Assembly (NCBI RefSeq): GCF_026991475.1
Contig: NZ_JALXBK010000044.1
Span: 6,283-70,282, forward strand
DNA: 64,000 nucleotides
DNA from: Sulfurimonas sp.
GTDB taxonomy: Bacteria; Campylobacterota; Campylobacteria; Campylobacterales; Sulfurimonadaceae
Direction: 5' to 3'
Shown: positions 519 to 60,717 of the stretch, piece by piece
Layout of the letters: every line of letters starts with the position of its first letter
Numbering within the stretch: the stretch's first letter is position 1
Made by a program: the position numbers and the translations under genes
The notes under the pieces: model-generated
What the model saw: the letters and a program-made list of their open reading frames with translations, nothing else
What the model was told of the DNA's origin: nothing
Database searches by the model: none

Positions 519-1661
519 TTACTTCTTACTACGTTGGTAATTCTCTTTAAGCAGTTTTTTTATAGTTTTAATATTCGCTGCGTTTAACTCATATTTTTCA
601 TCCATCAATTTATTGATATGAAATACCTCTGTAACAGTAATACCATAAGGATCTTTTTTCTCTTTTTGCAGTTTACCAGCATCATTAAAACTATAGAGGT
701 AGAGTCGTTTTCTATTTGTTTGAATGTAGTATGTAACTACAATTTCATCAGAATGTTTTTTTTCTAAAGCTATAACTACACGCTGATTTTCATCATATTC
801 ATCATCTTGAATCTGTAGTATATTTTTCACATATTTTACGGCAATAAATCCAACATAAAATTTATTGTATAAATCATGATACCTTTGAATATTTTCATTC
901 ATTAAAAACTTCATATCTATAATATGGTTTTTATGCCCTCTGAGTGATTTTGTGATCCAACTCATTGTGTTATAATACCTAAAAGGATGTAATTTAAGCA
1001 TATGTGCTTCAATCATCTTTTTAGATTTTATTTTCTCTTTTGGCAAAAGTTTTCGCTTCTTTAAAGTTGTAATATACTCAAAAACTTTAGAGGCAGAAAA
1101 CTCTTTTGTAAACCATACTTTACAATATGATGGAAACTGTTTTGCTCCAGTAGCACCCTCATTCAATATAATAAGCGCCTTAATGGTATAGTTTGGAAAT
1201 ATTGTCTCAAGCAGTGCATATTTTTTTCTCAAGCGTCTACGTAGTTTCAATACTGATTTAACAAGTGTCATCTCTACAAAATAAAGTTCATTGTTTTTTG
1301 TAATAAACATAGCATCAAATTCACTGATTTCTCTACTTTTCGTTCGATAAACTATCTGTTCTTTCTCACTTATTGAGAGCGTATTTGCATAAGCTTTATG
1401 TCTGTTTTGATGAAAACCTTTAAGTATGAATTTATCAATATCTTCATTAGTCTCAGCATAACGCAGTAGTTTTTCATAAACAAAATTTTCATACACTTCA
1501 CCTTCAAATGAACGATAAGAACTTAAATATGCAGGATCATCTAGCTCTATTCCTTTTTCAACAAGAGAAAGCAAATGCCTTGTATTATAATCATAATGTA
1601 AGAGATTATCTGAAATGTCATCTGTTTGAAGATTTTTAATTGATTTACTTATTTCCAACAT
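519..1661 (-). CDS. hypothetical protein with PD-(D/E)XK nuclease-like N-terminal motifs
   Basis: 380-aa ORF whose TTG start overlaps the dusB stop; contains GEVYENFVY...EFDAMF...YFVEMT. Confidence 0.55.
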   Translation of the reverse strand: MLEISKSIKNLQTDDISDNLLHYDYNTRHLLSLVEKGIELDDPAYLSSYRSFEGEVYENFVYEKLLRYAETNEDIDKFILKGFHQNRHKAYANTLSISEKEQIVYRTKSREISEFDAMFITKNNELYFVEMTLVKSVLKLRRRLRKKYALLETIFPNYTIKALIILNEGATGAKQFPSYCKVWFTKEFSASKVFEYITTLKKRKLLPKEKIKSKKMIEAHMLKLHPFRYYNTMSWITKSLRGHKNHIIDMKFLMNENIQRYHDLYNKFYVGFIAVKYVKNILQIQDDEYDENQRVVIALEKKHSDEIVVTYYIQTNRKRLYLYSFNDAGKLQKEKKDPYGITVTEVFHINKLMDEKYELNAANIKTIKKLLKENYQRSKK

Positions 1662-2617
1662 TACAGTGTCATCTCACCATTTTTAAAAAACTCATCAATA
1701 ACATCTCTATATTGCTCAATATTGTCAATAGAATTTACTTGATTTCTAAGTGCAGATGCACCTCTGTAGCCTTTTGAATAAGTATGTGTATGTTTTCTAA
1801 ACATCGGCACCCCATGTGTTCCATAAAAGTCAATCATTTTATCAAAATGTTCCATAATAATTTCATGCTTAAGTTTTTGATCGACATACGCTTCACCACT
1901 ACGGAGTTGATGAAATATCCATGGAGCACCAACAGCACCACGACCTATCATCACACCATCTGCTCCAGTATGTTCAAGTACCCATTTTGCTTTTTCATAC
2001 GAATCTATATCACCATTAGCAATAACAGGAATACTCACTGCTTCTTTTATCTCTTTTATAGCATCATAATCAACTGCAGCCTTAAATTTTCCAGCACGGG
2101 TTCTTCCATGAACAGCTAAAAAATCAGCTCCACTATCTTCAACCATTTTTGCAATATCAATATGATTTTTTTCTTCAAAACCCAAGCGTATCTTTACACT
2201 TGTAAGATTTTTATTTGAAGTATCTTTTATAGTTTTTATAATTGCACCCATTAGAGGTAAATCAAGTAAGAGAGAACTTCCACTTCCATGTCCAACAACT
2301 TTAGGAACAGGACATCCACAATTCAAATCAATAACATCTATACCATCTTGTTCATTTAAAAGTTCAACTGCTCTACGAACAATATCTACATCAGCACCAG
2401 CGATTTGGACAGAATATGGATTTTCAAGAGGAGATTTTTGAAGCATATGAAGAGTTTTTTCTGATCCATGAGCTAAAGCATTTGAACTTAGCATTTCACT
2501 CACAGTCAAATCAGCACCAAATTTTTTTACGACACTCCTAAAAGGAAGATCTGTAAAACCAGCTAATGGTGCTAAGACATATACTGGTTTATCAAAACAG
2601 ATTGTATCATTCATCAA
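1661..2617 (-). CDS. dusB: tRNA-dihydrouridine synthase B
   Basis: LAPLAGFTD, DLNCGCP (catalytic Cys), VHGRTR, NGDI and MIGRGA motifs. Confidence 0.93.
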   Translation of the reverse strand: MMNDTICFDKPVYVLAPLAGFTDLPFRSVVKKFGADLTVSEMLSSNALAHGSEKTLHMLQKSPLENPYSVQIAGADVDIVRRAVELLNEQDGIDVIDLNCGCPVPKVVGHGSGSSLLLDLPLMGAIIKTIKDTSNKNLTSVKIRLGFEEKNHIDIAKMVEDSGADFLAVHGRTRAGKFKAAVDYDAIKEIKEAVSIPVIANGDIDSYEKAKWVLEHTGADGVMIGRGAVGAPWIFHQLRSGEAYVDQKLKHEIIMEHFDKMIDFYGTHGVPMFRKHTHTYSKGYRGASALRNQVNSIDNIEQYRDVIDEFFKNGEMTL

Positions 2618-2623
2618 GATTAA

Positions 2624-3643
2624 CTATACAAAAATATCAATATTAAAGTTTTTACCACACTCTTTTAGAGCACGATAGGCTTTAAAGTTTTGATACTCAT
2701 CTTTTTGTGAATTATCTAAAATTGCATCTGCAGGTGAATGCATACCTAAATCATAAAGAGTGAAAATATAAGCATCAATTGCATCTTCATTCTTCTCAGA
2801 AAGTACTTCAAAAAGTTTAATTCTATCTTCTGGAATCATATGTGCATTTGCAAGTTGCATAGAAAGCTGAATAAAATCTTTTTTATCTAGTTGCACATTC
2901 TCAACAAGAGAGACTAAATCTTCATTAGGAATATGTAAACTATTTTCATCAGCATTAATTCTTGAAAGAATAGTATTTAGAGTCTCTTTTGTAAGATAGA
3001 CTTTATATTTTTCAATATTTGCTAAAGGAGCTGTTTTTATATATTCTAAATATACTTCTTTACGTAAATCTTCACTATATTTTTCTTCATTAGATAAAAT
3101 ATCTTCTGCTTTCAGGTCACCCTTTTTAAACATATTTCTTGTATTTTGAATAACTAATTCATTATCACTACGAAGATTAAAACGTTTTAAATCTGCAACT
3201 TCACCACTCTTAATAGTTTCTATTGCATCTATAACTTTTTCTATCTTTTCATTTTTAATTTTACCTCTAACATCACCCTTAGGATAAATAATACTATTTT
3301 CTAGAAGAGTACCTAATAACTTGTATCTTGCAGTTTTAAAGGTATAGTGTCTCTCCTGTTTACCAAGATATGTATCCGCAATTTCATCAATGATTTTTTC
3401 ATAATCTTTATCATATTTACGTAGTCTAAAGTTTCCTAACATAGAATAAATTGCCATATGTGCAACACTTGCTAGATATAGCACAACAAGAGGTAACACA
3501 ACCCATAGCGCTACCGAAAGTGATGGTAAAGGAACACCAAAGAAATCTATATTCACAGTCGTCTGCGTAACATACGCATATACATACCAACCAACTAAAG
3601 CTATCCATATAAACGCAGCTATCGTATATCTTTTTAAATACAT
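2624..3643 (-). CDS. conserved Campylobacterota membrane protein (two N-terminal TM helices, helical C-terminal part)
   Basis: 339-aa ORF in the dusB-dksA-rlmH-accD block seen in Campylobacterota. Confidence 0.75.
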   Translation of the reverse strand: MYLKRYTIAAFIWIALVGWYVYAYVTQTTVNIDFFGVPLPSLSVALWVVLPLVVLYLASVAHMAIYSMLGNFRLRKYDKDYEKIIDEIADTYLGKQERHYTFKTARYKLLGTLLENSIIYPKGDVRGKIKNEKIEKVIDAIETIKSGEVADLKRFNLRSDNELVIQNTRNMFKKGDLKAEDILSNEEKYSEDLRKEVYLEYIKTAPLANIEKYKVYLTKETLNTILSRINADENSLHIPNEDLVSLVENVQLDKKDFIQLSMQLANAHMIPEDRIKLFEVLSEKNEDAIDAYIFTLYDLGMHSPADAILDNSQKDEYQNFKAYRALKECGKNFNIDIFV

Positions 3644-3655
3644 TTTAAGTCCTTC

Positions 3656-4018: not shown

Positions 4019-4477
4019 TTATTTATGATATGGATGGTTACTTAATATAGAAAAAGCCCTATATATTTGTTCTAATAAAACTGCTTTTGCAATTTTATGA
4101 CTCATTGTTATTTTTCCTAGGCTTATAACAGCATTACTCTTTTGTAAAAATTTATCTTCAAAGCCATACGCACCACCAATAAAAAACTTTACATTCATTT
4201 TATCATTTATTAACTTACTAAATTCAAAACTATCTACAAGTTTTCCATTTGGATGCAAAGTTATACAGAAATCTTTCCCAATATAAGCTTCTAAAGCCTT
4301 TGTATATGCTTTTTGAGAAGCTTCTGGGGATATTGTGTGTGCTTTTGTTACATCTTTTGTAAAAATCTCTCTATCTGTAACATTAGCAAAACGGCTAATC
4401 ATCTTTGTTAAATCTTTATAAAGAGGATCATAAATCGTCTTTTCTTTTTTTGCAATTGACACAATTTCTATATTCAT
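4019..4477 (-). CDS. rlmH: 23S rRNA (pseudouridine1915-N3)-methyltransferase
   Basis: SPOUT motifs FFIGGAYG and [10 protein letters not shown]...[19 protein letters not shown]. Confidence 0.93.
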
Positions 4478-5040
4478 AAAAGTAATCCACTACCAATCAC
4501 ATTATAAGTAACATTTTCAAAGTCATCATTTAATTTAACGCCACCAATTGCAGCAACTAAATGTTTTGAATGCGCAGCAATTTTATCTAATTGGTTACCT
4601 AAAACAGACGTAATATCTGTTTTTGTTGCTGTATTCCTAAATGCACCAAGACCAATGTAGTTTAAATCCATTTTATTTGCTTCGAGTACTTCTTCTTCAT
4701 TATGAGTGGAAATACCAAGAATTTTATCTTCATTTATAACAGAGCGTAAAATAGCGACTGCCTTATGAATATCAGAATCAATCTCTAGCAAATCTTCCTG
4801 TCCCATATGAACACCATCACAATACTCGGCGAGTTCATAAGCGTCATTTATGATTAAAAAACCCTCAAACTGCTTTCTTATAGCGATTAACTGCTCTTTC
4901 ATAAATGCAATATCACCATTTTTATTGCGATACTGAATAATTTCTGCGTTTTGTGTTTTTGCTATATCTACAAATTCATCTATAGATATACCATTTTTAT
5001 CAAGTATATCCTGATCACAAAGCGCATAAAGTTTCATCAA
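4474..5040 (-). CDS. thiE: thiamine-phosphate synthase family protein
   Basis: [25 protein letters not shown] and AAIGG motifs. Confidence 0.8.
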
Positions 5041-6012: not shown

Positions 6013-7398
6013 TTATTTTAATAATGAAGTAATAATGCTTCTTGCAGCCTCACGACCATCAAACGCAGCAGTAACAACTAAATCAGCACCACGGTAACAA
6101 TCTCCACCGGCATAAATACCAGAAGTAGATGTTTCATGTGTCTCTTCATTAACAACAATCCCACCCCATGAATTTGTCTCAATTCCATTTTCTGCTAAGA
6201 AAGATGGAATAACAGGATCAAATCCAAGTGACATTATAACAACATCAGCATTAACTCTATACTCTGAATTTTTCACCTCTTCCATACGTTGACGACCTGA
6301 CTCATCTTTTGCACCAAGCGTTGTTTTTACAACTTCAACTGCAATAGCTTTTCCATCATCATTTAACACAATCTCTTTTGGAGAGACCAAAAATGTAAAG
6401 TCAACACCCTCTTCCATTGCATTTTTGTACTCTTTCTTACTTCCTGGCATATTATACTCATCACGACGATATAAACAAGTGACAGATTTCGCGCCCTCAC
6501 GCTTTGCAGTTCTTAAACAGTCCATAGCAGTATCACCACCACCCACTACAACTACATTTAAGTCTTTGAAATCAAATTTCTTTTCATAAGAGAGCTTAAA
6601 GTTTTTTCTTTGAATATTTGTTAAATAGTCCATCGCTTTATATACATTTGAACTATTTTCCCCTGCAATTCTAGCACTCTTTGCTTTTGTCGCACCAACA
6701 CCAATAAAAATAGCATCATGCTCATCTGCAATAGTTGCAAAATCAACATCATTTCCAACTTCACAATTGAGTACAAGTTTCATACCTGCTTCTTCAAGTA
6801 ATTTTACACGTCTATCAACCACTTTTTTGTCAAGCTTAAAGTTTGGAATACCATATGTTAAAAGTCCACCGGCACGGTCACTTCTTTCATACATAGTTAC
6901 CGCTATTCCTGAACGCAAAAGATATGTTGCAGCTGATAATCCCGCAGGACCACTTCCAATGATAGCTACTTTTTTATCTGTTGTAATCCCTGGAAAATCT
7001 GGTGTAAGCCCAGCTTTAAAACCAGCTTCTGTAATATGTGTTTCAACAGAACCAATAGTAATAGCACCATGACCATCATTGAGTGTACAATCACCCTCAC
7101 AAAGTCTATCGTGTGGGCAAACTCTTCCCATAACTTCAGGAAAAGGTGAAGGTTCATTTGAGAGTTTAAAAGCAAACTCCAAATCTTTCTCTGAAATAGA
7201 TTTTAACCATTGAGGAATATAGTTATGCAAAGGACATTTATTGAGACAAAATGGATCACCACATTGGATACATCTATCACTCTGCGTTGCAGCATCACCA
7301 CCATCGAACACCTCATAAATCTCACCAAAATCTTTTACTCTCTCTACTACCAATCTTTTCGAAGGCTCTATTCTTTCAGTATTTAAATATTCTCTCAT
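6013..7398 (-). CDS. gltD: glutamate synthase small subunit
   Basis: CIQCGDPFCLNKCP Fe-S motif, GSGPAGL FAD motif, GGGDTAMDC; adjacent to gltB. Confidence 0.95.
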   Translation of the reverse strand: MREYLNTERIEPSKRLVVERVKDFGEIYEVFDGGDAATQSDRCIQCGDPFCLNKCPLHNYIPQWLKSISEKDLEFAFKLSNEPSPFPEVMGRVCPHDRLCEGDCTLNDGHGAITIGSVETHITEAGFKAGLTPDFPGITTDKKVAIIGSGPAGLSAATYLLRSGIAVTMYERSDRAGGLLTYGIPNFKLDKKVVDRRVKLLEEAGMKLVLNCEVGNDVDFATIADEHDAIFIGVGATKAKSARIAGENSSNVYKAMDYLTNIQRKNFKLSYEKKFDFKDLNVVVVGGGDTAMDCLRTAKREGAKSVTCLYRRDEYNMPGSKKEYKNAMEEGVDFTFLVSPKEIVLNDDGKAIAVEVVKTTLGAKDESGRQRMEEVKNSEYRVNADVVIMSLGFDPVIPSFLAENGIETNSWGGIVVNEETHETSTSGIYAGGDCYRGADLVVTAAFDGREAARSIITSLLK

Positions 7399-7400: not shown

Positions 7401-10400
7401 TTAGTCTCCATTCTCTAGGTTAAGAGGTAGTTTTGTTAAATTTTTTGGTTTAACAAGCCAGAAGTTTCTCACTTCTACTCTAAAGTTTTCAAGCAGTTCT
7501 TGCGCTTTTTTACTTTGTGTTTCTACTACATAATCTTTCAGTAGGCGTTTGAGATAGTGTCTCGCTTCATCACCTTCATCTGTGTCAATTCTTACAGCTT
7601 CGACAAGTTCATGATTTACATTTTCAACAAATTCATGCTCTTTATCGTAAACAAAACTAACACCACCAGTCATACCAGCACCGAAGTTAATACCTGTTTT
7701 ACCAAGAATAACAACAACACCGCCAGTCATATATTCACAAGCATTGTCTCCTGTTCCCTCAACGATAGCAAATGCTCCAGAGTTACGAACAGCAAAACGC
7801 TCACCAACACTTCCAGAAATATAAAGCTTACCACCTGTTGCACCATAAAGACAAGTATTACCACCAGCAGAGAACTCTTCACCCTCATTTTGTGATGTAA
7901 TGATGATTTTACCACCATGCATACCTTTTCCTATGTAGTCATTTGCTACACCTTCAAGATAGATAGAGATACCATTAATCAAAAATGCACCAAGTGCCTG
8001 CCCTGCAATACCTGATAAATTAATTTTTATTGTATCTGGTTTAAGTCCTGCATCTCCATAATATTCAGCTATTTCACCACTTACCAAAGTACCAAAACTT
8101 CTATGAATATTTTTAATTTCTCTCTTAATTCTAATAGGCTGATCTGGGCTTTTAATAGCTGTCATTGCCTCTTTGAGTACATCTTTTTCAAATGCATTGT
8201 CATCAAAAGGAGGATTAAATTGTTGTTGATGCGTATTTACACCCTCTTCTTTATGTAAAATAGAAGAGAAGTCAAATTTTTTCGCAAATGCATCATCTTT
8301 TACTTTTAAAACATCTACATGACCTATCATCTCTTGCATTGTTCTAAATCCAAGTTCGGCCATAATTGCTCTTACATCTTCTGCAAGATATGTAAAGAAA
8401 TTAATTACCTGCTCAACTTGACCTTTAAAAAATTCACTACGAAGTTTCTCATTTTGTGTTGCAATTCCCACTGTACATTTGTTTACATGGCAAATACGAA
8501 GCATTTTACAACCAACAATCGTAAGAACACCTGTACCAAAAGCGTAACTCTCAGCACCAAGAAGTGCCGCTTTTACAATATCTAGTCCAGTCTTCAATCC
8601 ACCATCAGTTTGAAGCTCAACAAGTCCTCTTAAGTTATTTGCTTTAAGTGCATTGTGTGCCTCACTCAAGCCAATTTCCCATGGATTTCCTGCAAATTTT
8701 ATAGAAGTAAGTGGAGCAGCACCTGTACCACCATCACCACCTGAAATAATAATTTTGTCAGCATACGCTTTTGCAACACCTGCTGCAATTGTTCCAACAC
8801 CCATAGTAGAAACAAGTTTTACAGCAACTCTTGCTTTAGGATTAATCTGCTTCATATCAAAGATGAGTTGTGCCAAATCTTCAATAGAGTAAATATCATG
8901 ATGTGGTGGTGGTGAAATAAGCGTAACACCAGGAACAGTATGACGAAGCTTACCAATAAGCGGCGTAACTTTATGTCCAGGAAGTTGTCCACCCTCACCC
9001 GGTTTTGCACCCTGAGCAACTTTAATCTGAATCTCTTCAGCAGAACGAAGGTATGCAGGAGTAACTCCAAAACGACCAGATGCGACCTGTTTAATTTTTG
9101 AAACTCTCTCAGTTCCAAAACGGGCTTTATCTTCCCCACCTTCTCCTGAGTTTGATTGTGCTCCAATTCTATTCATCGCAGTAGCAATAGTTTCATGTGC
9201 TTCAGGAGAGATAGAACCAAGACTCATCGCAGCTGACGCAAAGCGTTTAAATATCTCTTCTTTTGGCTCTACTTCTGAAATGTCAATAGATTTTTTACCT
9301 GAATCAAATTCAAAGAAATCACGAATAAATTTCAATCCACGACTGTTAACCGTATTTTTAAGTCTATCAAAATTCTCTTGTGTAGGTTTTTTACTTACAG
9401 CATGAATAGCATGTATAACAGCAGGACCAAAATCGTGATGCTCTTGTCCTGTATAAAATTTATAGTAACCACCAATGTTTAATGGAAAGATTTTGTTAAA
9501 ACCACTTGTATCAAATGCATCTTTATGTGTTTTATCTAATCTTTCATCTAAATCTTCATAAGTTAAACCACTAAGTGTTGCGTTTGATGCTTCAAAACAC
9601 TCTTGTACAACATCTTTATGTAAGCCAAGAACATCAAAAAGTGCAGAGTTTCTATATGAAGCAATAGTAGAAATACCCATTTTTGACATAATTTTCAAAA
9701 GTCCACTGTTTAATGCAGTATGTACTGATTTATATGCGTCTGCACAATCTAAGTTTATAGTTTTAGATCTTTCTAACTGCGTCGAAACTGTTGCAAAAAG
9801 TAAATATGGATAGATAGCACTTGCGCCATACCCTATAAGAACTGCTGCACTATGAGAATCTACAACTTCACCAGTTACAGCAATCATAGAGATTAAATGA
9901 CGAATATTTTCTTCCAAAAGAGCTGTATTTAAGCGCCCAACTGCTAATGCCATTGGAATAACTTTATGCTCTTTATCTAAAGCGCTGTCATCTAAAATAA
10001 TAATACGACTTCCATCATTTTTAACAGAGTCAATCACCTTTTCAACTAAAGCATCAAGTGAAGCTTTTAAATCTGATTTATATGCCGTAGAAAATGTAGA
10101 GTTTTTATAAAAATCTTGGTATCTTGGAGATTTTACATCACCAAAAGATTTTAATACTACTAATTTTTCTCTAGTAATAATAGGAGAGATAGATTTTAAT
10201 CTTTGTGCATGCATTGGCACTTCATTAAGAATGTTGTGTACTTCACCAAAACCTGTATTTAAACTCATAACTACTTTTTCACGAATAGAGTCAATCGGCG
10301 GATTTGTAACTTGAGCAAATTTTTGTTTAAAAAAGTCTGTAAAATTTCTCTGTTTTTGAGAGAATGCTGCAAGTGGTGTATCATCACCCATAGAACCAAC

Positions 10401-11840
10401 AGCCTCTTTAGACTCTTTTATCATTGGTTCAATCACCTGTTCAACTATCTCTTGAGTTATGTTAAAATATCTTTGTTTATGTACCATTGCATCAGTGTCA
10501 ATTTCTACACAACTTACATATTGATTTTCAACATGCTCTTGCAAGTAAATCATATGCTCATTTAACCATTTCATATATGGATTAGAACTTTTTAGATAAT
10601 CATCAATCTCATTTGTTTTAAGAAGCTTTCCAAATTTAAGGTCAAGTCCAAGCATTTCGCCTGATTGTAGGCGACCTCTCTCTTTGATGTCTTCTTCTGC
10701 AATATCAACCACACCATATTCACTGGCAATAAGCAGGTTATCATCTTTTGTGACAATATATTTTGAAGGACGCAGACCGTTTCTGTCGAGAACACAGCCA
10801 ATATAGCGACCATCTGTTACAGAGAATGCAGCAGGTCCATCCCATGCTTCAAACACAGTAGAGTGATACTCATAAAATGCACGAAGTTCAGGATCCATAT
10901 GTGGAGCATTTTGCCATGCTGGAGGAATAACTGCGCGAACAGCTTTAAAAAAGTCCATACCATTTACAATAAGAAATTCAAAGAAATTATCTGCCGAAGC
11001 TGAATCTGATGAACCTGGTTGTAAAATTGGAAGTAATCTTTTTATCTCTTCATCGCTGAAAACATCACTTTTAACAGACTCTGATTTTATAGATACATTA
11101 ATACGGTTCGCTTCAACAGAGTTGATTTCACCGTTGTGAGCAACTGCACGAAACGGTTGTGCCAAACGCCATTCAGGGAGTGTATTTGTTGAAAATCTTT
11201 GGTGAAAAAGTGAAAAAGAGATTTTAAACTTTTCATCTTGTAAGTCTTTGTAAAACTCTTTAATATGAGTAGGCATTACAAGCCCTTTATAAGAGAGGAC
11301 TTTAGAACTCATAGAAGCAATATAAAAAGCTCTATCATCTACTAATTTATGCTCTGTTTCTTTACGAGAAAGATAGAGTAAAGCATCAAATCTATTTGTT
11401 GCCATAATGGAGTTTGCAATAATAAAAACTTGAACAATATGTGGAAGAGAAGCTATAGCTTGGTCACCCAAAGCATTTTTATCTACTGGCACTTCACGTT
11501 TTAAAATAACTTTGAGGTCATTGTTACAACAAATTTTTTCAAGCGTATCTAAATGCTCTAAATCTTTTGTAAATATAGAAGCAACTGCAAACTGTGCAGG
11601 GAGTTCAACGCCCTCTTTTGCAGCCTCTTCTATCATAAACTCTGTAGGCATTGAGAGCAAAAGCCCACTTCCATCACCTGTCTTTCCATCAGCTGCGACA
11701 GCTCCACGATGCATCATACGCTCTAGTGCAGTAACTGCATCATTTAAAACCTTGTGTGAAGGTCTGTTTTTAATATTAGCAACAAGACCAAAACCACAGT
11801 TATCCTTGAAGGATCTTAACAAATCATGATGTTCAACCAT
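7401..11840 (-). CDS. gltB: glutamate synthase large subunit
   Basis: CGFGLVA N-terminal nucleophile, HRGAVAADG, KVAQGAKPGEGGQLPG and GXGXG repeat C-terminus. Start moved to the ATG at 11840, behind a GGGAG RBS. Confidence 0.96.
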   Translation of the reverse strand: MVEHHDLLRSFKDNCGFGLVANIKNRPSHKVLNDAVTALERMMHRGAVAADGKTGDGSGLLLSMPTEFMIEEAAKEGVELPAQFAVASIFTKDLEHLDTLEKICCNNDLKVILKREVPVDKNALGDQAIASLPHIVQVFIIANSIMATNRFDALLYLSRKETEHKLVDDRAFYIASMSSKVLSYKGLVMPTHIKEFYKDLQDEKFKISFSLFHQRFSTNTLPEWRLAQPFRAVAHNGEINSVEANRINVSIKSESVKSDVFSDEEIKRLLPILQPGSSDSASADNFFEFLIVNGMDFFKAVRAVIPPAWQNAPHMDPELRAFYEYHSTVFEAWDGPAAFSVTDGRYIGCVLDRNGLRPSKYIVTKDDNLLIASEYGVVDIAEEDIKERGRLQSGEMLGLDLKFGKLLKTNEIDDYLKSSNPYMKWLNEHMIYLQEHVENQYVSCVEIDTDAMVHKQRYFNITQEIVEQVIEPMIKESKEAVGSMGDDTPLAAFSQKQRNFTDFFKQKFAQVTNPPIDSIREKVVMSLNTGFGEVHNILNEVPMHAQRLKSISPIITREKLVVLKSFGDVKSPRYQDFYKNSTFSTAYKSDLKASLDALVEKVIDSVKNDGSRIIILDDSALDKEHKVIPMALAVGRLNTALLEENIRHLISMIAVTGEVVDSHSAAVLIGYGASAIYPYLLFATVSTQLERSKTINLDCADAYKSVHTALNSGLLKIMSKMGISTIASYRNSALFDVLGLHKDVVQECFEASNATLSGLTYEDLDERLDKTHKDAFDTSGFNKIFPLNIGGYYKFYTGQEHHDFGPAVIHAIHAVSKKPTQENFDRLKNTVNSRGLKFIRDFFEFDSGKKSIDISEVEPKEEIFKRFASAAMSLGSISPEAHETIATAMNRIGAQSNSGEGGEDKARFGTERVSKIKQVASGRFGVTPAYLRSAEEIQIKVAQGAKPGEGGQLPGHKVTPLIGKLRHTVPGVTLISPPPHHDIYSIEDLAQLIFDMKQINPKARVAVKLVSTMGVGTIAAGVAKAYADKIIISGGDGGTGAAPLTSIKFAGNPWEIGLSEAHNALKANNLRGLVELQTDGGLKTGLDIVKAALLGAESYAFGTGVLTIVGCKMLRICHVNKCTVGIATQNEKLRSEFFKGQVEQVINFFTYLAEDVRAIMAELGFRTMQEMIGHVDVLKVKDDAFAKKFDFSSILHKEEGVNTHQQQFNPPFDDNAFEKDVLKEAMTAIKSPDQPIRIKREIKNIHRSFGTLVSGEIAEYYGDAGLKPDTIKINLSGIAGQALGAFLINGISIYLEGVANDYIGKGMHGGKIIITSQNEGEEFSAGGNTCLYGATGGKLYISGSVGERFAVRNSGAFAIVEGTGDNACEYMTGGVVVILGKTGINFGAGMTGGVSFVYDKEHEFVENVNHELVEAVRIDTDEGDEARHYLKRLLKDYVVETQSKKAQELLENFRVEVRNFWLVKPKNLTKLPLNLENGD

Positions 11841-12020
11841 TATAACTCCCAAATTTTTAAATTTTATATAAGAACTATATAAATTTAATCTCTTTTTAAA
11901 GAAACTTAGTCTATTTAGAGATAAAGCACGTATATTATATATTTTTTTACTTTAAATAAGGATAATAATAGTAGAATTTCTTATGAAAAATAAGCCAAGT
12001 GTGTATATAGGAAGCAATTA

Positions 12021-24648: not shown

Positions 24649-24708
24649 CTAATTCAAGTCTCTATGAAACTATGCTATACTTACTTATATTAAAAAGTGA
24701 GGTTACTT

Positions 24709-50973: not shown

Positions 50974-52173
50974 TTATACTACTTCTACATTAACTACTTG
51001 AATACCATTGTATTTGTAACCACCACGGTTCCAGCCAATATCTTTAGAGAGAGGTTGTTCTTCACCAAGAGAGTTCACCGCTTTTGCCATAATATTAAGT
51101 TTTCCATATTTTTTCGGTTTGAATCCAAAAAGGAATGCTCTATAGGCATATCTGCCCATATCTTCTTTAAGAGTCGCTTCTTCCCATGTTTTTCCATCAT
51201 CAATAGAGATGAGAACTTTATGGATGCCATAACCACCATCCCATGCAACACCACGAACAACTACTTGTGAATTATGGTAAATTTTTGCACCGTTTTCAGG
51301 ATAACCAATAACTGATTTCACATTCATTATAGTAATAGGTTTTGTCTTTTTCGCTTTATTTTCAGGTGTTTCACATTCACATTCGTTATCTGGAACTCTA
51401 TAGGCTTTATCCATAAAGAAAAGAGATTTATATTTATCTGTCACTGTAATGTTACTAAGCATTTTAACCCAACTGTCAGAGTAGTATCCAGGAAGCACTA
51501 AACGCAGTGGATAACCATTTAAATATGGCAGATCTTCACCATTCATCTCATATGCTACGATAACGTGATCATCAAGTTCATCAAGCTCTAATTCTCGCAC
51601 AAAGTTTGGTGTTTTATAGTAAGCTGCTTTTTCACGACCGTTAAAGCCTATCCATTTTGCACCTTCAAGAAGCCCTGCTTTGTCCAAAATGTCTTTAAGC
51701 CTTACACCTTTCCATCTTGCACAACCCATAGCACCACTACCCCACTGAATACCACCAGGAATAGGAGTAAATGCTGAACGGCTATTTCCACCACACTGAA
51801 CTACTGCGTTTACTTCCACCTGTTCAAAATCACGCTTAAGATCTGCAATCGAAATTTTTAACTCTTTTTTTACAAAACCATTAATATGAATAGTATATGT
51901 ATCAGGGTCAATATATGTAGGAATATCCGGAAGATGCCAACGCACAAAGAATTGATCATTTGGTGTAAATTCCTCTGTAAATACAGAGAGTGGCGTTTCC
52001 AATAATGGCGGTCTATCTGAATATGTAATAAGTGGTCTTTTTTCAGGAAAAGCATACTTAGATACTTTTCTTGTTTCATTAGGTTGGTGTGTTTCACCTG
52101 CAGCTAAAGATGTAGAGCCAAGCACCGCTGCTGATGCTGCAATTGAAGTTTTAAAAAAATCTCTTCTTTTCAT
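50974..52173 (-). CDS. sorA: Tat-exported sulfite dehydrogenase molybdoprotein, SorA-like
   Basis: MKRRDFFK Tat motif; FFVRWH, QCGGNSR (Mo-Cys) and GYPLRLVLPG sulfite-oxidase family motifs. Confidence 0.85.
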   Translation of the reverse strand: MKRRDFFKTSIAASAAVLGSTSLAAGETHQPNETRKVSKYAFPEKRPLITYSDRPPLLETPLSVFTEEFTPNDQFFVRWHLPDIPTYIDPDTYTIHINGFVKKELKISIADLKRDFEQVEVNAVVQCGGNSRSAFTPIPGGIQWGSGAMGCARWKGVRLKDILDKAGLLEGAKWIGFNGREKAAYYKTPNFVRELELDELDDHVIVAYEMNGEDLPYLNGYPLRLVLPGYYSDSWVKMLSNITVTDKYKSLFFMDKAYRVPDNECECETPENKAKKTKPITIMNVKSVIGYPENGAKIYHNSQVVVRGVAWDGGYGIHKVLISIDDGKTWEEATLKEDMGRYAYRAFLFGFKPKKYGKLNIMAKAVNSLGEEQPLSKDIGWNRGGYKYNGIQVVNVEVV

Positions 52174-52239: not shown

Positions 52240-53487
52240 CTACTCTTCTAGTTCGGAATATCCCTTTTGAACTTGCGCTTTTTTTGCCAATAAATTTGCT
52301 TTTTTTGTGACATCTTCACCAACTATATGGTAGTGCTGATGAAGGTTTTCAAGAGATGTATCTATCTTCGTACAAAGTTCTTTAGAGAGTGTATCAAATC
52401 TGTAGCCCATTGCGTTTATCTCTTCTTTAGAGTTTATTTGCAACTCTTTCGTAAGAAGATTCAACTGCGCTTGAGACTTCACATAGTCTGATTTAATACG
52501 CTCTATCTCATCAATTAATATTTTAAGCTCTTCAAATACATCACTCATTCCATTATTTGTATCTGCAAGTCTCTCCATCTTTTTTGAGGAGAGTATCATC
52601 TGTTTCATTATCAGTTCACTTTGTGCACGAATATTTGAGAGGGTACTTTCGCCTTCATGTAAAGAGGTGGCCACTACTCCTGTATTTGATTTTAAAAGAA
52701 GTAGCTCTTTTTCAAAATCTTTCATAACGTAGGATAATTCTTCAGTAGTAGAAGTTACTATTTGGTCTGAAACATTTGTGGCAAGTGCCATAATATTATC
52801 TAATTTCATCTGTAATTCTCGTATATCATCCGATATACCAAATCTACTTTCAACTGCTTTTTTTAGGAGTTCTTGGAGTTTATTGTAGTGGTCTTTTTCA
52901 GAAATTCGTAAAATATCTATATGTTTGTGCACTACATCATCTAGTTTTGGAAGTTGCTCTTCACTAAAGTAGGTAAATGAGTTTTTAACATCATCATGCC
53001 ACGCCTCAACTTGTAAAAACTTCTCTAAAAATTTTTCTTGATTTACCTCAATGGTGCTAAGTGTTTGAATATCTTCTATAAACTTCTCTCGAATTTCACT
53101 CTGCGTTTGCACTGTTTCATTTTGTGCTGCATTCATTCTTTTTTCAAGTTCTAAAATAAAATTTTTAAGTTGGGCAATTTCTTGAACCAATACAGTGCTA
53201 AATTCATCCTGTGTTCTTGATTGTAAAGAGAGCTGCGTTTGATGTAGAATATTCATAATAATATATAAGATCACTGCTACAAGTAGCGGAAAAAGTGATT
53301 CTCTACTCAGTAGCAATAAGTCATTACTATGCGGATGAATCATAAAGTGAATAATTGAGCTAAGTGTTCCAATACCGAGCATTAGTGGTGCATAATCTAT
53401 CTTATTTGGCTGTTTTAAAATAGCAATTTGTCTTAAAAACAGAAGTGCCATCACGCCAAACGCAATGAGTAAATCAGTGTCAAACAT
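52240..53487 (-). CDS. membrane-anchored coiled-coil hypothetical protein
   Basis: Three N-terminal TM helices followed by about 330 aa of heptad-rich helix. Confidence 0.75.
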   Translation of the reverse strand: MFDTDLLIAFGVMALLFLRQIAILKQPNKIDYAPLMLGIGTLSSIIHFMIHPHSNDLLLLSRESLFPLLVAVILYIIMNILHQTQLSLQSRTQDEFSTVLVQEIAQLKNFILELEKRMNAAQNETVQTQSEIREKFIEDIQTLSTIEVNQEKFLEKFLQVEAWHDDVKNSFTYFSEEQLPKLDDVVHKHIDILRISEKDHYNKLQELLKKAVESRFGISDDIRELQMKLDNIMALATNVSDQIVTSTTEELSYVMKDFEKELLLLKSNTGVVATSLHEGESTLSNIRAQSELIMKQMILSSKKMERLADTNNGMSDVFEELKILIDEIERIKSDYVKSQAQLNLLTKELQINSKEEINAMGYRFDTLSKELCTKIDTSLENLHQHYHIVGEDVTKKANLLAKKAQVQKGYSELEE

Positions 53488-55373: not shown

Positions 55374-56331
55374 AGTTAATCTCCCAATGCCCTTTTCTTG
55401 CACTTCCTACTCTTTTAATTTTATTCTCTTTTTTCAAGTTTACTATCTGTTTTTCAATGGCTCTTGTAGTCAAATCTAGAAGCTCTGCTAACTCTCTTAT
55501 GGTAATTTTTGGATTTTCTTCTAAATAAATTAAAATTTTATCCTCTGTATTTACCGAACTTTTTACCGAACTTTTTACCGAACTTTGAATAGTCTCTAAA
55601 ATCACTTCTAACATAAATTCTATAAAAGGTGTGCTTTCACCTAAACTTCCAGACTCTTCTAAAGCTCTATAGTATCTCTCTTGATTATCTCTTATAATAC
55701 TTTCGGTAGGAATAGCACTAAAAACTTTTCGCCATTGATGTAAAATTACTGATTGCCAAAGTCGTCCAATTCTACCATTTCCATCAGAAAATGGATGAAT
55801 AAACTCAAACTCATAATGAAATACGCAAGATTTGATAAGCATATGTTCATCACTTGTTTTTAACCACTCAAATAGATTTTGCATTAATTGGGCTACAACA
55901 CCAAAAGGTGGAGCGACATGGCTTACCCCATCACTACTACCAACTCCTACATTAACACCTCTAAAACTTCCAGCACTATTTAAAATACCTTTCATCAAAT
56001 AGTTATGGGCTTTTAACAAATCATCAAGATTATCATAGCTATAATTTTCAAATGCTTTATAGGCTTCTATAGCACCCTCAACCTCAAGTACCTCTTGATA
56101 ACTACCCAAAACTCTCTTTCCATCTAAAATTGCAGTAATCTTCTCTTCTCCCAAAAAATTACCCTCTATCTCTAAAGTACCGACAAGAGTCTTAATACGA
56201 TTTTTTTTTCGAAGCTGTGGAGTAATGATTTTGTCAGATTTATACTCTAATCTAGTAAGTTCTTCACCTATTTTAGTTGCTAAAGACAACATTTTAGAAG
56301 TGATTGTATAGGGAGGTTTATAATTACTCAT
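55366..56331 (-). CDS. Fic family protein with C-terminal HTH
   Basis: Canonical HPFSDGNGRIGR motif; TIRELAELL...AIEKQI HTH. Confidence 0.92.
   Translation of the reverse strand: MSNYKPPYTITSKMLSLATKIGEELTRLEYKSDKIITPQLRKKNRIKTLVGTLEIEGNFLGEEKITAILDGKRVLGSYQEVLEVEGAIEAYKAFENYSYDNLDDLLKAHNYLMKGILNSAGSFRGVNVGVGSSDGVSHVAPPFGVVAQLMQNLFEWLKTSDEHMLIKSCVFHYEFEFIHPFSDGNGRIGRLWQSVILHQWRKVFSAIPTESIIRDNQERYYRALEESGSLGESTPFIEFMLEVILETIQSSVKSSVKSSVNTEDKILIYLEENPKITIRELAELLDLTTRAIEKQIVNLKKENKIKRVGSARKGHWEINYG
55551..55586. repeat. 12-bp tandem repeat x3 in the Fic linker
   Basis: (TTACCGAACTTT)3, encoding SSVK-SSVK-SSVN. Confidence 0.9.
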
Positions 56332-59216
56332 GAAATATTACTCTCCTTACCCTCTACAATCTTCACTTCATCCTCATTTAATCCATAAAGCTTATAAACC
56401 AAGCTATCAATCTCTTTAATACTATCATCTACCAAATGCTCTAGCTTCTCAATCTCCTCTTTTATCTCTATCTTATCGACTGCGTTTAGGCTCTCAAAGT
56501 GTTTGTTGTATTTTGCTATTTTCTCTTTTGATTCTATGATGGTGTCTACTACATTTATAAATGGTTCTTGTTTCTCTTTTGGTATTTTTGGGATTGGTAA
56601 TTTTCCAACACCATTAGGAAAATATTCAAAACTTCCTCCACCCGTTTGTTTTCCAATACTTTTATATCTAAAATTCAAAACTTTAGAATTTAAAAGTGCC
56701 AATAAATATTTTAAATCAAAATTAGCATTTGTATCAAAAATGATTGTCATATTTGAAAATGCTAAATACTCATTTTTACAATCTAGTACAAAAGTATTTT
56801 CAAATGCTCTTCTACTGCAAAATATTTTATTATACTTATAAAGTTCCTTATGCATTGGGCGGCTATATCTCCACCATATTCTACCTTCATTTTTAACAGT
56901 TGCTCTATTTTCTAAAAACTCTTTATTTTCAAGCAAATGATTTTGTATTGAACTTGGCAAATCTTCAAAGTTTTCTATGTCTTCAAAATATAAAATATAT
57001 GTTTCTTTACCCTCTATAAAATATCTTTTTATATTTTTACCCGTCACTCTTGGCTTTATAAATTCTTTTGGAAATTGATTTGGATACTCTTTAAATAAAA
57101 ATACTTTATCTGCCGCAGTTTCCATTCCTTTACCAATTTTAAAGATACTATTTAGCTTTGAATGGGAACTATCTATTTTTTCATTTATAGCACTTATTTT
57201 TTTCTCTACTAATGAAAAAACCATATCTTTTTTTAAACTTACTTCAAAATAGTTTTTTATATCAGAGATGATTTCATTAATTTCACTTACTTCATAATTT
57301 TTTTCTTTAAAGTTATAAGCCAAACATTCACTATCTTTTTTATTTTTATCAAATTCTATAATAGCAGAAGTTATTGAAGCATCTTGAAAAACCATATATT
57401 TTTCAAAATTTAAAATTTTTGAAATAGGTGCATTGTCTAATATATAGTTTCTTAGTTTTACAGCTTTTGCAAAGTGTAAAAAAGCATTTGAAGTTATAAA
57501 GCCCACTTTACTTTTTGTTATTTCTATGGCTTTTGCTACAAAATAAAAAAGTATATCGCTTTTATCTTGCCAAATATTCGGAAATCTATTTTGTATCTCT
57601 TTTGCTAATTCTGATTTAGCCCCTAAAGTTTGAATATTAAAATACGGTGGATTCCCTATCACAACATCAAAACCACCATTAGCCATTATTTCAGGAAAAA
57701 GCTCATTCCAGTCAGCAGTAAGTGAGTTTGCACTTTTAATGTTGCCCATAAGATTTGAAAGTGGTCTGTCCCTTTTTGCAGTTTGTAGCCATAAAGAGAG
57801 TTTTGCTATGCCAACACTTGCACCATTTATATCTACTCCAAAAAGATTTTTTTCTATGATTTGCTTATCTATATCGTGATGTTCAAAGAGTCCTGCATCT
57901 GCTAATTGTAGCTCTCTTTGTATCCATTTATGCTCATCTAAAAGATATCTAAAAGAAGCAGTTAAAAACGCACCACTTCCACACGCTGGATCAACTATTT
58001 TTAGGCTCTCAAGATACTCTCTATATTTGTGCAGATTCTCGCGCCTCATCTGTTTTGCTTTTTTACCCTCTTTTGTTGCATCAAAAAGTTTTAACTCCTC
58101 TTTTTTCACATCGCAGAGTTTTGCGACAGTATTGTTTATGATGTAGTGCGTAACAAACTGAGGCGTGTAAAAGACACCATCTTTTTTTCTAGTATCTACT
58201 ACCTTGTGTTCTTCAAAGAGAGACTCTTTAATCTTCTCCAAATCATTTAATGATTGTTCAAATATATGCCCTAAAACCTCTACATCTACATCATCACTAA
58301 AATCATAAGCACTTAAATGAGATAAATCATCTTTAATTATATAGTCATCTATTATGAGATTTTCTAGCAATTCATCAGGCTTAAAAAGATTTCCATTATA
58401 TCTAGGAATATTTACTTTAGCATTTCCCACATCTATAAAATGAAAATACTTTTTGTAGTAATTATAAAGAGGAGTATCATCTCCCCACTCCTGAGAACTC
58501 TCATACTGTTTTATAACAGCATCAATGCTATTTGCAGGGATCAGCCCTCTATCTTCAGCAAAGAGTATAAACATAAATCTATCAAGCAGTTTGTTTGCCG
58601 ACTCAAATATACTCTCTTTTGATAGCTCTTTATTGTTATCAATAAGATTATTTAAAAGTTTTAATCTAAAATTACTATACTCTTTATAGACCTCTTTGGT
58701 TATCTCTTCTTGTGATTTTGAGAGTTTTTTGAGTCTTGCTATTTCGCTGGATTCTAAGGATGGTTGTGAGAGAAGTGCATAGAGTATGGTGTAGCTCTCG
58801 TTTTTTGTCATATCTAAAGAGAAGCAGACATCACTACTTTCACTATAAATGTCAAGCTGTTTAAAGTTTGAAATGATGACATATTTACAAGTTGGTTTTT
58901 CGTTTTTATAACGAAATGCTTGCGCTATGATGTCACGATTTGATATTTTTTTATCACTACTTTTTAGCTCTATGATTGCTATTGGCTTGCTATTTTTATC
59001 ATAAACCACACCATCAGCTTTTTTCATATCTGTAGTGTTTTTCACCTCTCTTACACAGTTACTCCATTGAAGCATCTTTGCAAGCAGAGCAATAAACTCA
59101 GCACCATTTGCATCTTCAGCTATAAATTTATTTTTTGTAACAAGTTTAATGATGTCGTTACTATCTGGAGCATTGAAAGATTTTACAAAATTTTTAAGGA
59201 GTGATTTTTGAAACAT
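56328..59216 (-). CDS. type IIG restriction-modification enzyme (Eco57I-like fused REase-m6A MTase-TRD)
   Basis: N-terminal ADG...IELK PD-(D/E)XK motif, GVFYTP, DPACGSGAFL, GNPPY and a TaqI_C-like TRD. Confidence 0.88.
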   Translation of the reverse strand: MFQKSLLKNFVKSFNAPDSNDIIKLVTKNKFIAEDANGAEFIALLAKMLQWSNCVREVKNTTDMKKADGVVYDKNSKPIAIIELKSSDKKISNRDIIAQAFRYKNEKPTCKYVIISNFKQLDIYSESSDVCFSLDMTKNESYTILYALLSQPSLESSEIARLKKLSKSQEEITKEVYKEYSNFRLKLLNNLIDNNKELSKESIFESANKLLDRFMFILFAEDRGLIPANSIDAVIKQYESSQEWGDDTPLYNYYKKYFHFIDVGNAKVNIPRYNGNLFKPDELLENLIIDDYIIKDDLSHLSAYDFSDDVDVEVLGHIFEQSLNDLEKIKESLFEEHKVVDTRKKDGVFYTPQFVTHYIINNTVAKLCDVKKEELKLFDATKEGKKAKQMRRENLHKYREYLESLKIVDPACGSGAFLTASFRYLLDEHKWIQRELQLADAGLFEHHDIDKQIIEKNLFGVDINGASVGIAKLSLWLQTAKRDRPLSNLMGNIKSANSLTADWNELFPEIMANGGFDVVIGNPPYFNIQTLGAKSELAKEIQNRFPNIWQDKSDILFYFVAKAIEITKSKVGFITSNAFLHFAKAVKLRNYILDNAPISKILNFEKYMVFQDASITSAIIEFDKNKKDSECLAYNFKEKNYEVSEINEIISDIKNYFEVSLKKDMVFSLVEKKISAINEKIDSSHSKLNSIFKIGKGMETAADKVFLFKEYPNQFPKEFIKPRVTGKNIKRYFIEGKETYILYFEDIENFEDLPSSIQNHLLENKEFLENRATVKNEGRIWWRYSRPMHKELYKYNKIFCSRRAFENTFVLDCKNEYLAFSNMTIIFDTNANFDLKYLLALLNSKVLNFRYKSIGKQTGGGSFEYFPNGVGKLPIPKIPKEKQEPFINVVDTIIESKEKIAKYNKHFESLNAVDKIEIKEEIEKLEHLVDDSIKEIDSLVYKLYGLNEDEVKIVEGKESNIS

Positions 59217-59590: not shown

Positions 59591-59999
59591 TGCTAACCTC
59601 CACCCTGTTTACTTTTGCACCTAATTGTTCTTTATGCTTACTCAATGTATCCACAATTGTACTATCAATTTTATATGAAGTCAATATTTTGCCATTTTGT
59701 GCGACAATAACAGCCCAATTGTCTTCTTTTGTATAAAAAACCCTATCCCATAAATCAGCTGCTTCATAGAGTTCAAAAAATGTTTCGTCACTACTAAGAG
59801 CATTAAATGTTTTTTGTAAATAGTCATGCTCATCAATAACTATTTCTTCAATATTCATTCTTTTATTCAGGTGTTTTCTGTAGTCTTTAATGGTATACCA
59901 TAACATTGCAAAAGAAGATATTGCAGATTGTTTGCTTGTAGCATCAAAATTTTCTAAATGAATTAAAAAATTATTTTCAACTTTCTTATACTTTTCCAT
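59538..59999 (-). CDS. hypothetical protein, putative BECR-fold RNase toxin
   Basis: Likely start ATG 59999 (153 aa); YRKHLNKR...RVFY...WAVIV..NGKILTSYK pattern. Confidence 0.5.
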   Translation of the reverse strand: MEKYKKVENNFLIHLENFDATSKQSAISSFAMLWYTIKDYRKHLNKRMNIEEIVIDEHDYLQKTFNALSSDETFFELYEAADLWDRVFYTKEDNWAVIVAQNGKILTSYKIDSTIVDTLSKHKEQLGAKVNRVEVSNEFRQTIKQITEKLREF

Positions 60000-60015
60000 C
60001 ACCAAAATATACCCA

Positions 60016-60717
60016 TTAAACTTCAATCCGTAAACTAACTTCATACATAAACTGCTGCAGAGGCAACATATCTTCATATATTTCAAAAAGAGTTGTAATG
60101 AGAGCTTTACCATCTTCTATAAGATGTGGGTCTAAAAGCTTATATGTTGCCATACCTTTATAGAGAGATAAGTCTGCGTTTGGCATATCTTTGTCAAAAC
60201 CTTTTGGGTAGCGTTTATAGCCTTTTTCAAGATGTGTATAATTTTTTCCCATCCCTTTGATTTTGTTCAAAATATCTGCAAGTTCTTGCCGCTTTGCATC
60301 ATCTTTTATATATTCACGAAAAGCATCAAGCATAGGTTTTTCAAACCATCTCACACCAACTGCAACATAAAGTTCCTCTGGGGAGAAATGCATATAAAAA
60401 GAGGAGCTTTGCATCCTTTTGCCAGATCCTTGCCAAAATATTACACCAATACGGTGTTTAATTGGCTCTTTATTTGCACCCATTCTACGGGTATCTCTGT
60501 AAATTCTATAGAGTGATTTGTTTATTTTTGGTTCTGCGTTTATGGTGGGCTCTAGTGCTTGAAGATGTTCACCCATCTCTACGACAAAAGCGCGAGATGG
60601 GTTGAGAATAAGGTTTTCATACTCACTTTTATGAGCTTCAAACCATACTTTGTTGTTGTTTTTACGAATAGAGTCTAAAAAAGGTAAAACTTTTGGTGAA
60701 AAACCACTAAACTCCAT
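60016..60717 (-). CDS. DUF2461 family protein
   Basis: FSGF...FL..I..NNNK.WFEAHK..YE and RIYRDTR...KEP.K motifs. Confidence 0.85.
   Translation of the reverse strand: MEFSGFSPKVLPFLDSIRKNNNKVWFEAHKSEYENLILNPSRAFVVEMGEHLQALEPTINAEPKINKSLYRIYRDTRRMGANKEPIKHRIGVIFWQGSGKRMQSSSFYMHFSPEELYVAVGVRWFEKPMLDAFREYIKDDAKRQELADILNKIKGMGKNYTHLEKGYKRYPKGFDKDMPNADLSLYKGMATYKLLDPHLIEDGKALITTLFEIYEDMLPLQQFMYEVSLRIEV

Follow-up and report, generated by a model that had tools for sequence, protein, structure and literature searches.

Sequence-specific DNA uptake is ascribed to two named families, the Neisseriaceae and the Pasteurellaceae, and approximately half of their DNA uptake sequences (DUS) and uptake signal sequences (USS) lie in terminators (10.1101/2025.10.24.684340). 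The DUS (GCCGTCTGAA and its dialects) is found in the Neisseriaceae, where it is read by the minor pilin ComP. The USS is found in the Pasteurellaceae as AAGTGCGGT and ACAAGCGGT types. Two further systems are of interest for comparison: the cyanobacterial octamer HIP1 (GCGATCGC) and the methylation-dependent discrimination of DNA in Campylobacter jejuni (CtsM, RAATTY). Here we analyze the octamer AAACGCAG in a Sulfurimonas sp. assembly (G000; 2.07 Mb, 131 contigs, 34.8% GC). The window, which is the whole 64-kb stretch of DNA that was analyzed, corresponds to C44:6283-70282 of this assembly. AAACGCAG is a real signal that is maintained at the DNA level. With moderate confidence, we interpret it as a lineage-specific 'self' word, a tag like the DUS and USS that may have been built up by biased uptake and recombination. 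We infer both the uptake bias that would act as the driving force and the protein that would read the word.

AAACGCAG resembles the DUS, which is present in thousands of copies at about one per kilobase, in its density and its equal use of both strands. In both, the core is sharp, the flanks are weaker, the dialects are specific to clades and intragenic frames are biased, and the scarcity of AAACGCAG in one probable acquired island may be a further parallel. They differ in that the sequence and the phylum are unrelated, approximately 91% of AAACGCAG copies are intragenic, and there are no inverted-repeat pairs. The machinery found here is of the Campylobacter Cts type instead of a classical ComP-bearing type IV pilus, and no pilin-like gene tracks the dialect. 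The USS is similar in its mostly intragenic, frame-biased and protein-tolerated sites, in having at least two types in related genera, and in a receptor that was long unknown. The USS has an extended AT-rich flank and a spacing that is more even than random, whereas AAACGCAG is uninformative beyond +/-2 bp and its spacing is over-dispersed. The dialects of AAACGCAG also differ in turning over within one genus and even between near-sister genomes. The C. jejuni system is comparable in phylum, in its Cts-type machinery and in self-recognition before uptake, but the AAACGCAG 8-mer is enriched 11- to 30-fold and a strict motif filter found no matching methyltransferase. To our knowledge, RAATTY is short, common by chance and not reported as enriched. 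HIP1 is, like AAACGCAG, a hyperabundant intragenic octamer that is conserved beyond coding needs, and its function is debated. It is a palindrome, a methylation target and conserved throughout a phylum (PMC13756078), whereas AAACGCAG is asymmetric and belongs to some clades of one genus.

Exact matches to AAACGCAG number 46 in the window, of which 25 lie on the plus strand and 21 on the minus strand. A sequence-only reading of the window had listed 43 positions, all of which are exact matches, and had missed three more at 3611 (+), 12252 (-) and 60174 (-). Dinucleotide-preserving shuffles of the window (n = 100) contain 1.51 +/- 1.34 copies with a maximum of 5, and the observed number is approximately 30 times higher. 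The enrichment is not confined to the window. Across G000 there are 1,397 copies, 704 and 693 by strand, or one per 1.49 kb. AAACGCAG ranks second among all 8-mers of the genome, and longer words around it top the 9- to 12-mer lists.

Directly 5' of AAACGCAG, a C or T is present in 42 of the 46 window copies, in agreement with the 39 of 43 claimed previously, and the same lean is seen directly 3' (32 of 46). In the logo of 1,392 genome copies, information outside the core is found solely at positions -2/-1 (Y) and +1 (Y), and the word is therefore not part of a longer repeat. The fuller consensus is Y-AAACGCA(G>A)-Y. One-base variants are rarer in the window, as had been stated, but number 15 (AAACGCAA) and 7 (AAACGCAT) instead of about 12 and 6. 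Within the window, 44 of the 46 copies are located in open reading frames (ORFs) of at least 100 amino acids (aa), and the remaining two (24756 and 32304) are in ORFs of 88 and 87 aa. Five frame and orientation classes are used, as many as had been put forward as a minimum. Their use is uneven, with 17 copies in xxA-AAC-GCA-Gxx and 17 in xCT-GCG-TTT.

The coding sequences used for the null models are crude calls, 1,850 ORFs covering 1.85 Mb of G000. When codons are shuffled synonymously within each gene, such that every protein and each gene's codon usage are kept, 117 copies of AAACGCAG are expected and 1,269 are observed, a 10.9-fold excess. Shuffling of codon order gives 67 copies. The excess thus survives codon-preserving shuffling, and a protein motif does not explain it, as the sequence-only reading had argued. 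The same reading had looked to an order-5 Markov model. An order-3 model expects 109 copies genome-wide versus the 1,397 found; the order-5 and order-6 expectations (781 and 1,287) were set aside as uninformative because these models absorb AAACGCAG itself. AAACGCAA is the sole enriched one-base variant (3.3-fold over the synonymous shuffle), and the other 22 one-base variants are at 0.3-1.4-fold, many of them below 1.

Coding DNA contains 0.69 copies of AAACGCAG per kb, and non-coding DNA contains 0.56. Genome-wide, 509 copies are in frame xxA-AAC-GCA-Gxx (N-A) and 389 in xCT-GCG-TTT (A-F). Approximately 110-134 copies are found in each of three other frames, and the frame that requires Cys contains 15. 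Intragenic copies therefore favor frames of low protein cost. The dominance of two frames would be expected if AAACGCAG were a by-product of amino-acid, dipeptide or codon usage, and an assembly artefact could also be envisaged. We give these explanations practically no credence. They are refuted by the 11-fold excess over the synonymous shuffle and by close relatives that encode the same proteins and lack the word, and they are further opposed by the density in non-coding DNA and by the presence of AAACGCAG in independent assemblies of other samples.

Sites of AAACGCAG are conserved between relatives beyond what is expected of random 8-mers. L001, at 6.5% divergence, retains every one of the 12 window sites that can be aligned, versus an expectation of 61% from random 8-mers (p = 0.003). 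Relatives that are 22-25% diverged retain 4 of 7, 7 of 17 and 6 of 11 sites versus 15-17% for random 8-mers (p = 0.003-0.018). In the near-sister L002, whose marker protein is 96% identical, 4 of 12 window sites are intact versus 46% expected. Six of these eight losses include the C-to-T change AAACGCAG to AAATGCAG, which is synonymous in both dominant frames, and so no special mutational explanation is needed. Some lineages actively maintain AAACGCAG, and in a very near relative of these it erodes at roughly the background rate. Whole-genome counts follow the same pattern, with 464 copies in G032 (the genome of L002) versus 1,481 in its near-sister G031 (the genome of L001), and 203 in G047 versus 831 in its sister G046. 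These two pairs, which are 3- to 4-fold apart, are natural cases of loss of maintenance and could reveal the determinant of the word. In alignments of orthologous DNA, some sites are shared and others are lineage-specific through several protein-changing substitutions. For example, L015 and L021 carry GAAACGCAGC at a site that reads TATAAAAAT(C/T) in all the others. Convergent gains of AAACGCAG by multiple substitutions also occur in these alignments. Two strain contigs, L132 and L133, are 99.9% and 99.0% identical and contain too few differences for a population-level test of polymorphism.

The dispersal of the word over both strands and the whole genome would also be consistent with a binding site for an abundant nucleoid-associated or chromosome-organizing protein. 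Such a site gives no reason for rapid change of dialect or for decay at about the background rate in a near-sister, and we know of no nucleoid protein with sharp 8-bp sites in more than 1,000 copies. We therefore regard this explanation as very improbable.

GC skew tracks gene orientation in 20-kb bins (rho 0.87) and is therefore a usable proxy for replication direction. Per 20-kb bin, the orientation of AAACGCAG has a rho of -0.26 with GC skew. In 10-kb bins oriented by skew, 468 copies are on the G-rich strand and 493 are on the other (49:51, n = 961); for G-rich words in these bins, the ratio rises to 80:20. AAACGCAG has no polarity toward replication, which excludes a role like that of the FtsK-orienting polar sequences (KOPS) and strongly disfavors Chi. 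Leading-strand polarity had been named in the sequence-only reading as the sign of a signal of this type, and there is none. Chi and KOPS are, like AAACGCAG, over-represented octamers of core DNA, but both are co-oriented with replication. A Chi-like (AddAB/RecBCD) or KOPS-like (FtsK) polar signal was rejected on this test and is extremely improbable; the word also varies between species within one genus, and no Chi site known to us matches its 11- to 30-fold excess or its density of one copy per 1.5 kb. The commonest 8-mer of G000 is AAAAAGAG (1,488 copies), which, unlike AAACGCAG, favors the G-rich (leading) strand, with 627 copies there versus 412 on the other.

The longest AAACGCAG-free gap, C24:58206-77830, spans 19.6 kb at 30% GC and contains 0 copies versus approximately 13 expected. 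It contains a lipopolysaccharide (LPS)/O-antigen cluster with rfb-type genes, glycosyltransferases and an ABC exporter, and is probably a recently exchanged or acquired island. Further gaps correspond to low-GC signaling genes or to highly conserved operons, including atp and tol-pal. The two largest genes of contig C16, probably rpoB and rpoC judged by size, also fall in this conserved group of gaps, as does a 1,483-aa gene in the window (7401-11852), probably gltB.

Among 18 other Sulfurimonas species, AAACGCAG ranges from background (3-90 copies) up to 1,186 copies. In 12 genomes from other families of the order it is at background. The related loci carry the title Sulfurimonas sp., and the majority are from metagenome-assembled genomes. 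Besides G031, whole-genome counts in rich relatives are 1,409, 1,216, 1,711, 1,714 and 1,825, and one relative contains 1,305 copies in 1.4 Mb. Intermediate counts are 831, 658, 549, 495, 464, 361, 336 and 203, and a sister clade contains 53-69 copies. G012, with 2.76 Mb in 2 contigs, contains 410. The signal is thus not genus-level, as had been supposed, but belongs to some Sulfurimonas clades only, and others carry other words or none.

De novo word counts in the relatives' genomes and loci identify several of these dialects. CTCACGCAG is abundant in G006, G010, L012, L049 and L055, CCACATGCC in nine loci, and the palindrome TACATGTA in G009, G016, L007 and L072-L080. GCATCTA is abundant in L038, L051, L061 and others, and AAACGCCA in L022 and L042. 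Three words are abundant in a single locus each: AACACGCAA (L053), TAGCATCA (L065) and TGCACCAA (L067). The words cluster on a tree of a 622-aa marker, with 25 changes versus 36.3 when labels are shuffled (0 of 200 shuffles as low). CAAAAGAG is among the top words in several further Sulfurimonas loci.

ComEC is present in 30 of 31 genomes, among them G000 and every genome with a completeness of 90% or more. The sole secretin in the G000 assembly belongs to a complete cluster resembling a type II secretion system (T2SS) at C47:67.8-77.8 kb. A second system, g1-g2-g3-secretin-ctsP-ctsX-g7-ctsE-ctsF, is kept across the order and resembles the C. jejuni Cts transformation genes. In G000, contig C6 begins within ctsE, and ctsF comes next. 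The cts-like operon is complete in G031, which is near-identical to G000, and in G032. No ctsE or ctsF orthologs were found in G013 (= G049, Sulfurimonas sp. UBA2011) or in G044 (the genome of L028, isolate NORP9), and a secretin-family search of G013 found none. Both genomes keep ComEC, and their AAACGCAG density is intermediate, at only 0.22-0.24/kb.

The cts-like operon differs strongly between near-sister genomes. In L138 (G031:C132) and L137 (G032:C181), the g1, g2, g3, secretin, ctsX, g7 and ctsF proteins are 62-85% identical, versus 98-99.6% for the flanking housekeeping genes, and ctsX is 48-52% identical between G031 and G033/G015. The divergence suggests that the uptake machine is under diversifying selection or exchanges alleles. 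Such divergence is seen with or without a shared word and therefore proves nothing on the reader.

The window encodes an enzyme that bears on a further explanation, in which a strand-specific methyltransferase would mark AAACGCAG and the cell would read the mark, as with RAATTY in C. jejuni, with dialects following exchange of specificity. The product of the gene at 56328-59216 (-) is 962 aa long and bears a PD-(D/E)XK-like motif (D...ELK) at its N-terminus, together with the S-adenosylmethionine (SAM) motif VDPACGSGAFL and NPPY, an arrangement that matches MmeI-family type IIL restriction-modification enzymes. A second gene of G000, C49:15536-19276 (+), encodes a 1,246-aa type IIG-like enzyme in which a nuclease-like N-terminus is combined with an N6-methyltransferase (NPPY) and a single HsdS-like target-recognition domain. 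Mobile restriction-modification systems are numerous in Campylobacterota, methylation guides the selection of DNA in C. jejuni, and many MmeI-family sites share the ...CAG ending of AAACGCAG; these points and the patchy placement of the word on the marker tree favor a methyl tag. The distribution of both enzymes is itself patchy, with MmeI-like homologs at 57-61% identity in two other genera. At E <= 1e-5, neither enzyme has a homolog in G012 or G013; G015 has no MmeI-like match and merely a 36-41% partial match to the type IIG enzyme; and the best matches in G014 are 43% and 49% identical. The methyltransferase screen was a strict motif filter that gave four candidates and is not exhaustive. 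The MmeI-like and type IIG enzymes do not accompany AAACGCAG wherever the word is maintained, although the filter may have missed others. Restriction sites are, moreover, normally avoided and not enriched, and we consider a methyl tag quite unlikely.

An uptake sequence is favored because of the density and strand symmetry of AAACGCAG, its lack of polarity, its frame bias, the dialects, the motif-free stretches, its conservation, the loss in G032 and the presence of the machinery. The earlier proposal of an uptake sequence, one of three options that had been offered beside a methylation-linked iterated motif and a nucleoid-protein site, is supported by the dialects, the absence from the probable acquired island, the frame bias and the conservation at the DNA level, and fails in its genus-level scope. 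Under this reading, a component of the transformation machinery would bind or prefer double-stranded DNA bearing AAACGCAG, and word-bearing fragments would be taken up and recombined more often. New mutational copies would spread and lost copies would be replaced (molecular drive), and the word would accumulate wherever the encoded protein tolerates it. This model predicts that recently arrived DNA would still be without the word and that very constrained genes could not accommodate it. It also predicts that, after a change or loss of preference, the old word would decay at approximately the background rate and a new dialect could build.

Several observations weigh against an uptake sequence. 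The gaps between copies are over-dispersed (coefficient of variation 1.29) and not even. Unlike the DUS and USS, copies of AAACGCAG that lie within 100 bp of each other are not preferentially inverted (++ 38, -- 31, +- 27, -+ 33), and a terminator or inverted-pair role was rejected on the lack of a pair preference genome-wide. The sequence-only reading had singled out com and pil genes. ComEC and ctsE/ctsF are present, G000 and G015 yielded no small ComEA-type protein, and none of the pilin-like genes compared tracks the word. The cts secretin of G000 is not in its 131-contig assembly. As an uptake machine, the T2SS-like cluster was rejected; it is present in G001, G005, G007 and G016, all of which lack AAACGCAG, and absent from the dialect-bearing G006, G009 and G010, and its distribution fits none of the abundant words. 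None of four pilin-like proteins compared across dialects groups by dialect, and the candidates at C76:10934-11422, C76:11573-11971 and C47:53191-54720 were rejected as the reader, as their identities follow phylogeny or vary freely. The apparent loss of a 208-aa pilin in G032 is a contig end and not a deletion. None of the nine cts-operon proteins compared follows the dialects or unites the two TACATGTA genomes, G009 and G016, and these proteins were also rejected as the reader. Neither of the two restriction-enzyme-sized methyltransferases follows AAACGCAG, and both were rejected as its determinant. De novo counts found no abundant word in G002, G005, G008 or G017, though the same machinery is present. 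On the single-gene marker tree, AAACGCAG undergoes at least 6-7 gains or losses, and frequent loss or a mobile determinant is therefore needed.

The polyphyly of AAACGCAG and the lack of a competence component that tracks it are also what would be expected of a HIP1-like word, maintained by a DNA-level process unrelated to uptake, such as a sequence-specific bias in repair or gene conversion, or a role in the biology of the chromosome. A variable and perhaps mobile DNA-binding protein would then act as the determinant. The hyperabundance, the intragenic copies and the conservation beyond codon needs resemble cyanobacterial HIP1 (PMC5861425), and the Sulfurimonas dialect TACATGTA is palindromic. 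AAACGCAG itself is not a palindrome, no known repair bias creates an 11- to 30-fold excess that is sharp at all eight positions, and no candidate enzyme was found. The lower density in the two genomes that lack cts genes fits uptake better. On balance, a HIP1-like origin appears rather unlikely.

The individual window copies are given below with strand and ORF; f0, f1 and f2 denote frames. Frame xxA-AAC-GCA-Gxx is used in the sense orientation at 578-585 (-, TAAACGCAGC, ORF 519-1661) and xCT-GCG-TTT in the antisense orientation at 3611-3618 (+, TAAACGCAGC, ORF 2624-3643), the latter being absent from the earlier list, as are 12252-12259 and 60174-60181. Sense f2 copies are found at 4944-4951 (-, AAAACGCAGA, ORF 4474-5040), 12338-12345 (+, ORF 12021-12638), 13157-13164 (-, ORF 12633-13241), 15747-15754 (-, ORF 14845-16029; CTGCATTT in L002), 17791-17798 (-, ORF 16835-18016; lost in L002) and 18648-18655 (-, ORF 18013-20205). 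The same class is used at 22867-22874 (-, ORF 22427-23155), which is common to L001 and L002, and at 23842-23849 (-, ORF 23168-24196), which is common to L001, L003 and L004. Further sense f2 copies are at 37851-37858 (-, ORF 37720-39300), 40342-40349 (+, ORF 39392-40648), 47322-47329 and 48327-48334 (both +, ORF 47077-48984), 51804-51811 (-, ORF 50974-52173), and 60174-60181 and 60534-60541 (both -, ORF 60016-60717). One more, at 56480-56487 (-), is within the MmeI-like restriction-modification gene. Sense f0 (AAA-CGC-AGx) is used at 20696-20703 (-, ORF 20578-22446), which is common to L001 and L006 in the alignment, and sense f0 also at 28310-28317 (+, ORF 28190-29560; AAATGCAG in L002). Sense f1 (xAA-ACG-CAG) is used at 53101-53108, and sense f1 also at 53233-53240 (both -, ORF 52240-53487).

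Antisense f1 copies are found at 6061-6068 (+, CAAACGCAGC, ORF 6013-7398) and, in ORF 12633-13241, at 12684-12691 (+, GAAACGCAGC) and 13050-13057 (+). ORF 14845-16029 contains three, at 15298-15305 (+; intact in L001, AAATGAAA in L002), 15415-15422 (+; intact in L001 and L002) and 15721-15728 (+), the last of which forms an inverted pair with 15747, 26 bp apart. Others are at 17636-17643 (+, ORF 16835-18016; AAATGCAC in L002), 23939-23946 (+, ORF 23168-24196; common to L001-L004 and L006), 29601-29608 (-, ORF 29564-29971), 37810-37817 and 39046-39053 (both +, ORF 37720-39300), 41932-41939 (-, GAAACGCAGC, ORF 40638-42032), 42195-42202 (+, ORF 42135-42623), 43282-43289 and 43888-43895 (both +, ORF 43273-44961), and 46553-46560 (-, ORF 45754-47067). 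Antisense f0 copies are at 12252-12259 (-, TAAACGCAGT, ORF 12021-12638), 15593-15600 (+, ORF 14845-16029; ACACGCAG in L002), 25416-25423 (+, ORF 25316-27667), 36747-36754 (+, ORF 34634-37576), 48124-48131 (-, AAAACGCAGC, ORF 47077-48984) and 51500-51507 (+, ORF 50974-52173). The two copies in short ORFs are at 24756-24763 (+, 88-aa ORF, 24697-24963) and 32304-32311 (+, 87-aa ORF on the minus strand, 32198-32461).

Three other features of G000 were observed outside the window. The gene at C76:10934-11422 (-) encodes a 162-aa type IV pilin-like protein, adjoins priA near comEC, and is hypervariable. Its product is 45% identical between G000 and G031, both of which bear AAACGCAG, while most proteins are approximately 90-97% identical. 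At C47:49445-54720, two pilin-like genes (208 and 300 aa) follow a gene whose 1,250-aa product is a secreted protein that contains a run of Asn (NNNNNNNNNNNN). This region looks like a pilus-tip adhesin with minor pilins, approximately 13 kb from the T2SS-like cluster. The replicative helicase DnaB (C76:521-2998 (+), 825 aa) contains an apparent intein-like insert (C...LAGLIDSDGY...VTHN) in its ATPase domain.

Natural transformation occurs in Campylobacter and Helicobacter. It is also documented in the phylum for Aliarcobacter (PMC8308473). The literature searched contains no documentation of transformability in Sulfurimonas. Searches for Sulfurimonas with uptake sequences gave no report, those for Campylobacterota or Epsilonproteobacteria with 'DNA uptake sequence' gave nothing relevant, and the bare word AAACGCAG returned primers only. 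The earlier statement that no uptake sequence is described in the Campylobacterota agrees with these searches. It is possible, though we lean slightly against it, that Sulfurimonas has a third, independently evolved form of sequence-specific self-DNA recognition for transformation, with a Cts-type machine, a reader of the word and a specificity that switches fast enough for near-sister genomes to differ.

If this is true, the third case would be in free-living chemolithoautotrophs, versus two host-associated proteobacterial families, and tagging of self DNA would be a recurrent solution. There would be a new receptor to find, and the dialects would act as rapidly evolving barriers that restrict gene flow among populations of vents and sediments. 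The pairs G031/G032 and G046/G047 provide a natural system of tag gain, switch and loss between very close relatives. In Sulfurimonas metagenomes, the words could mark bins and acquired DNA. The right word on donor DNA might make hard-to-manipulate Sulfurimonas genetically tractable.

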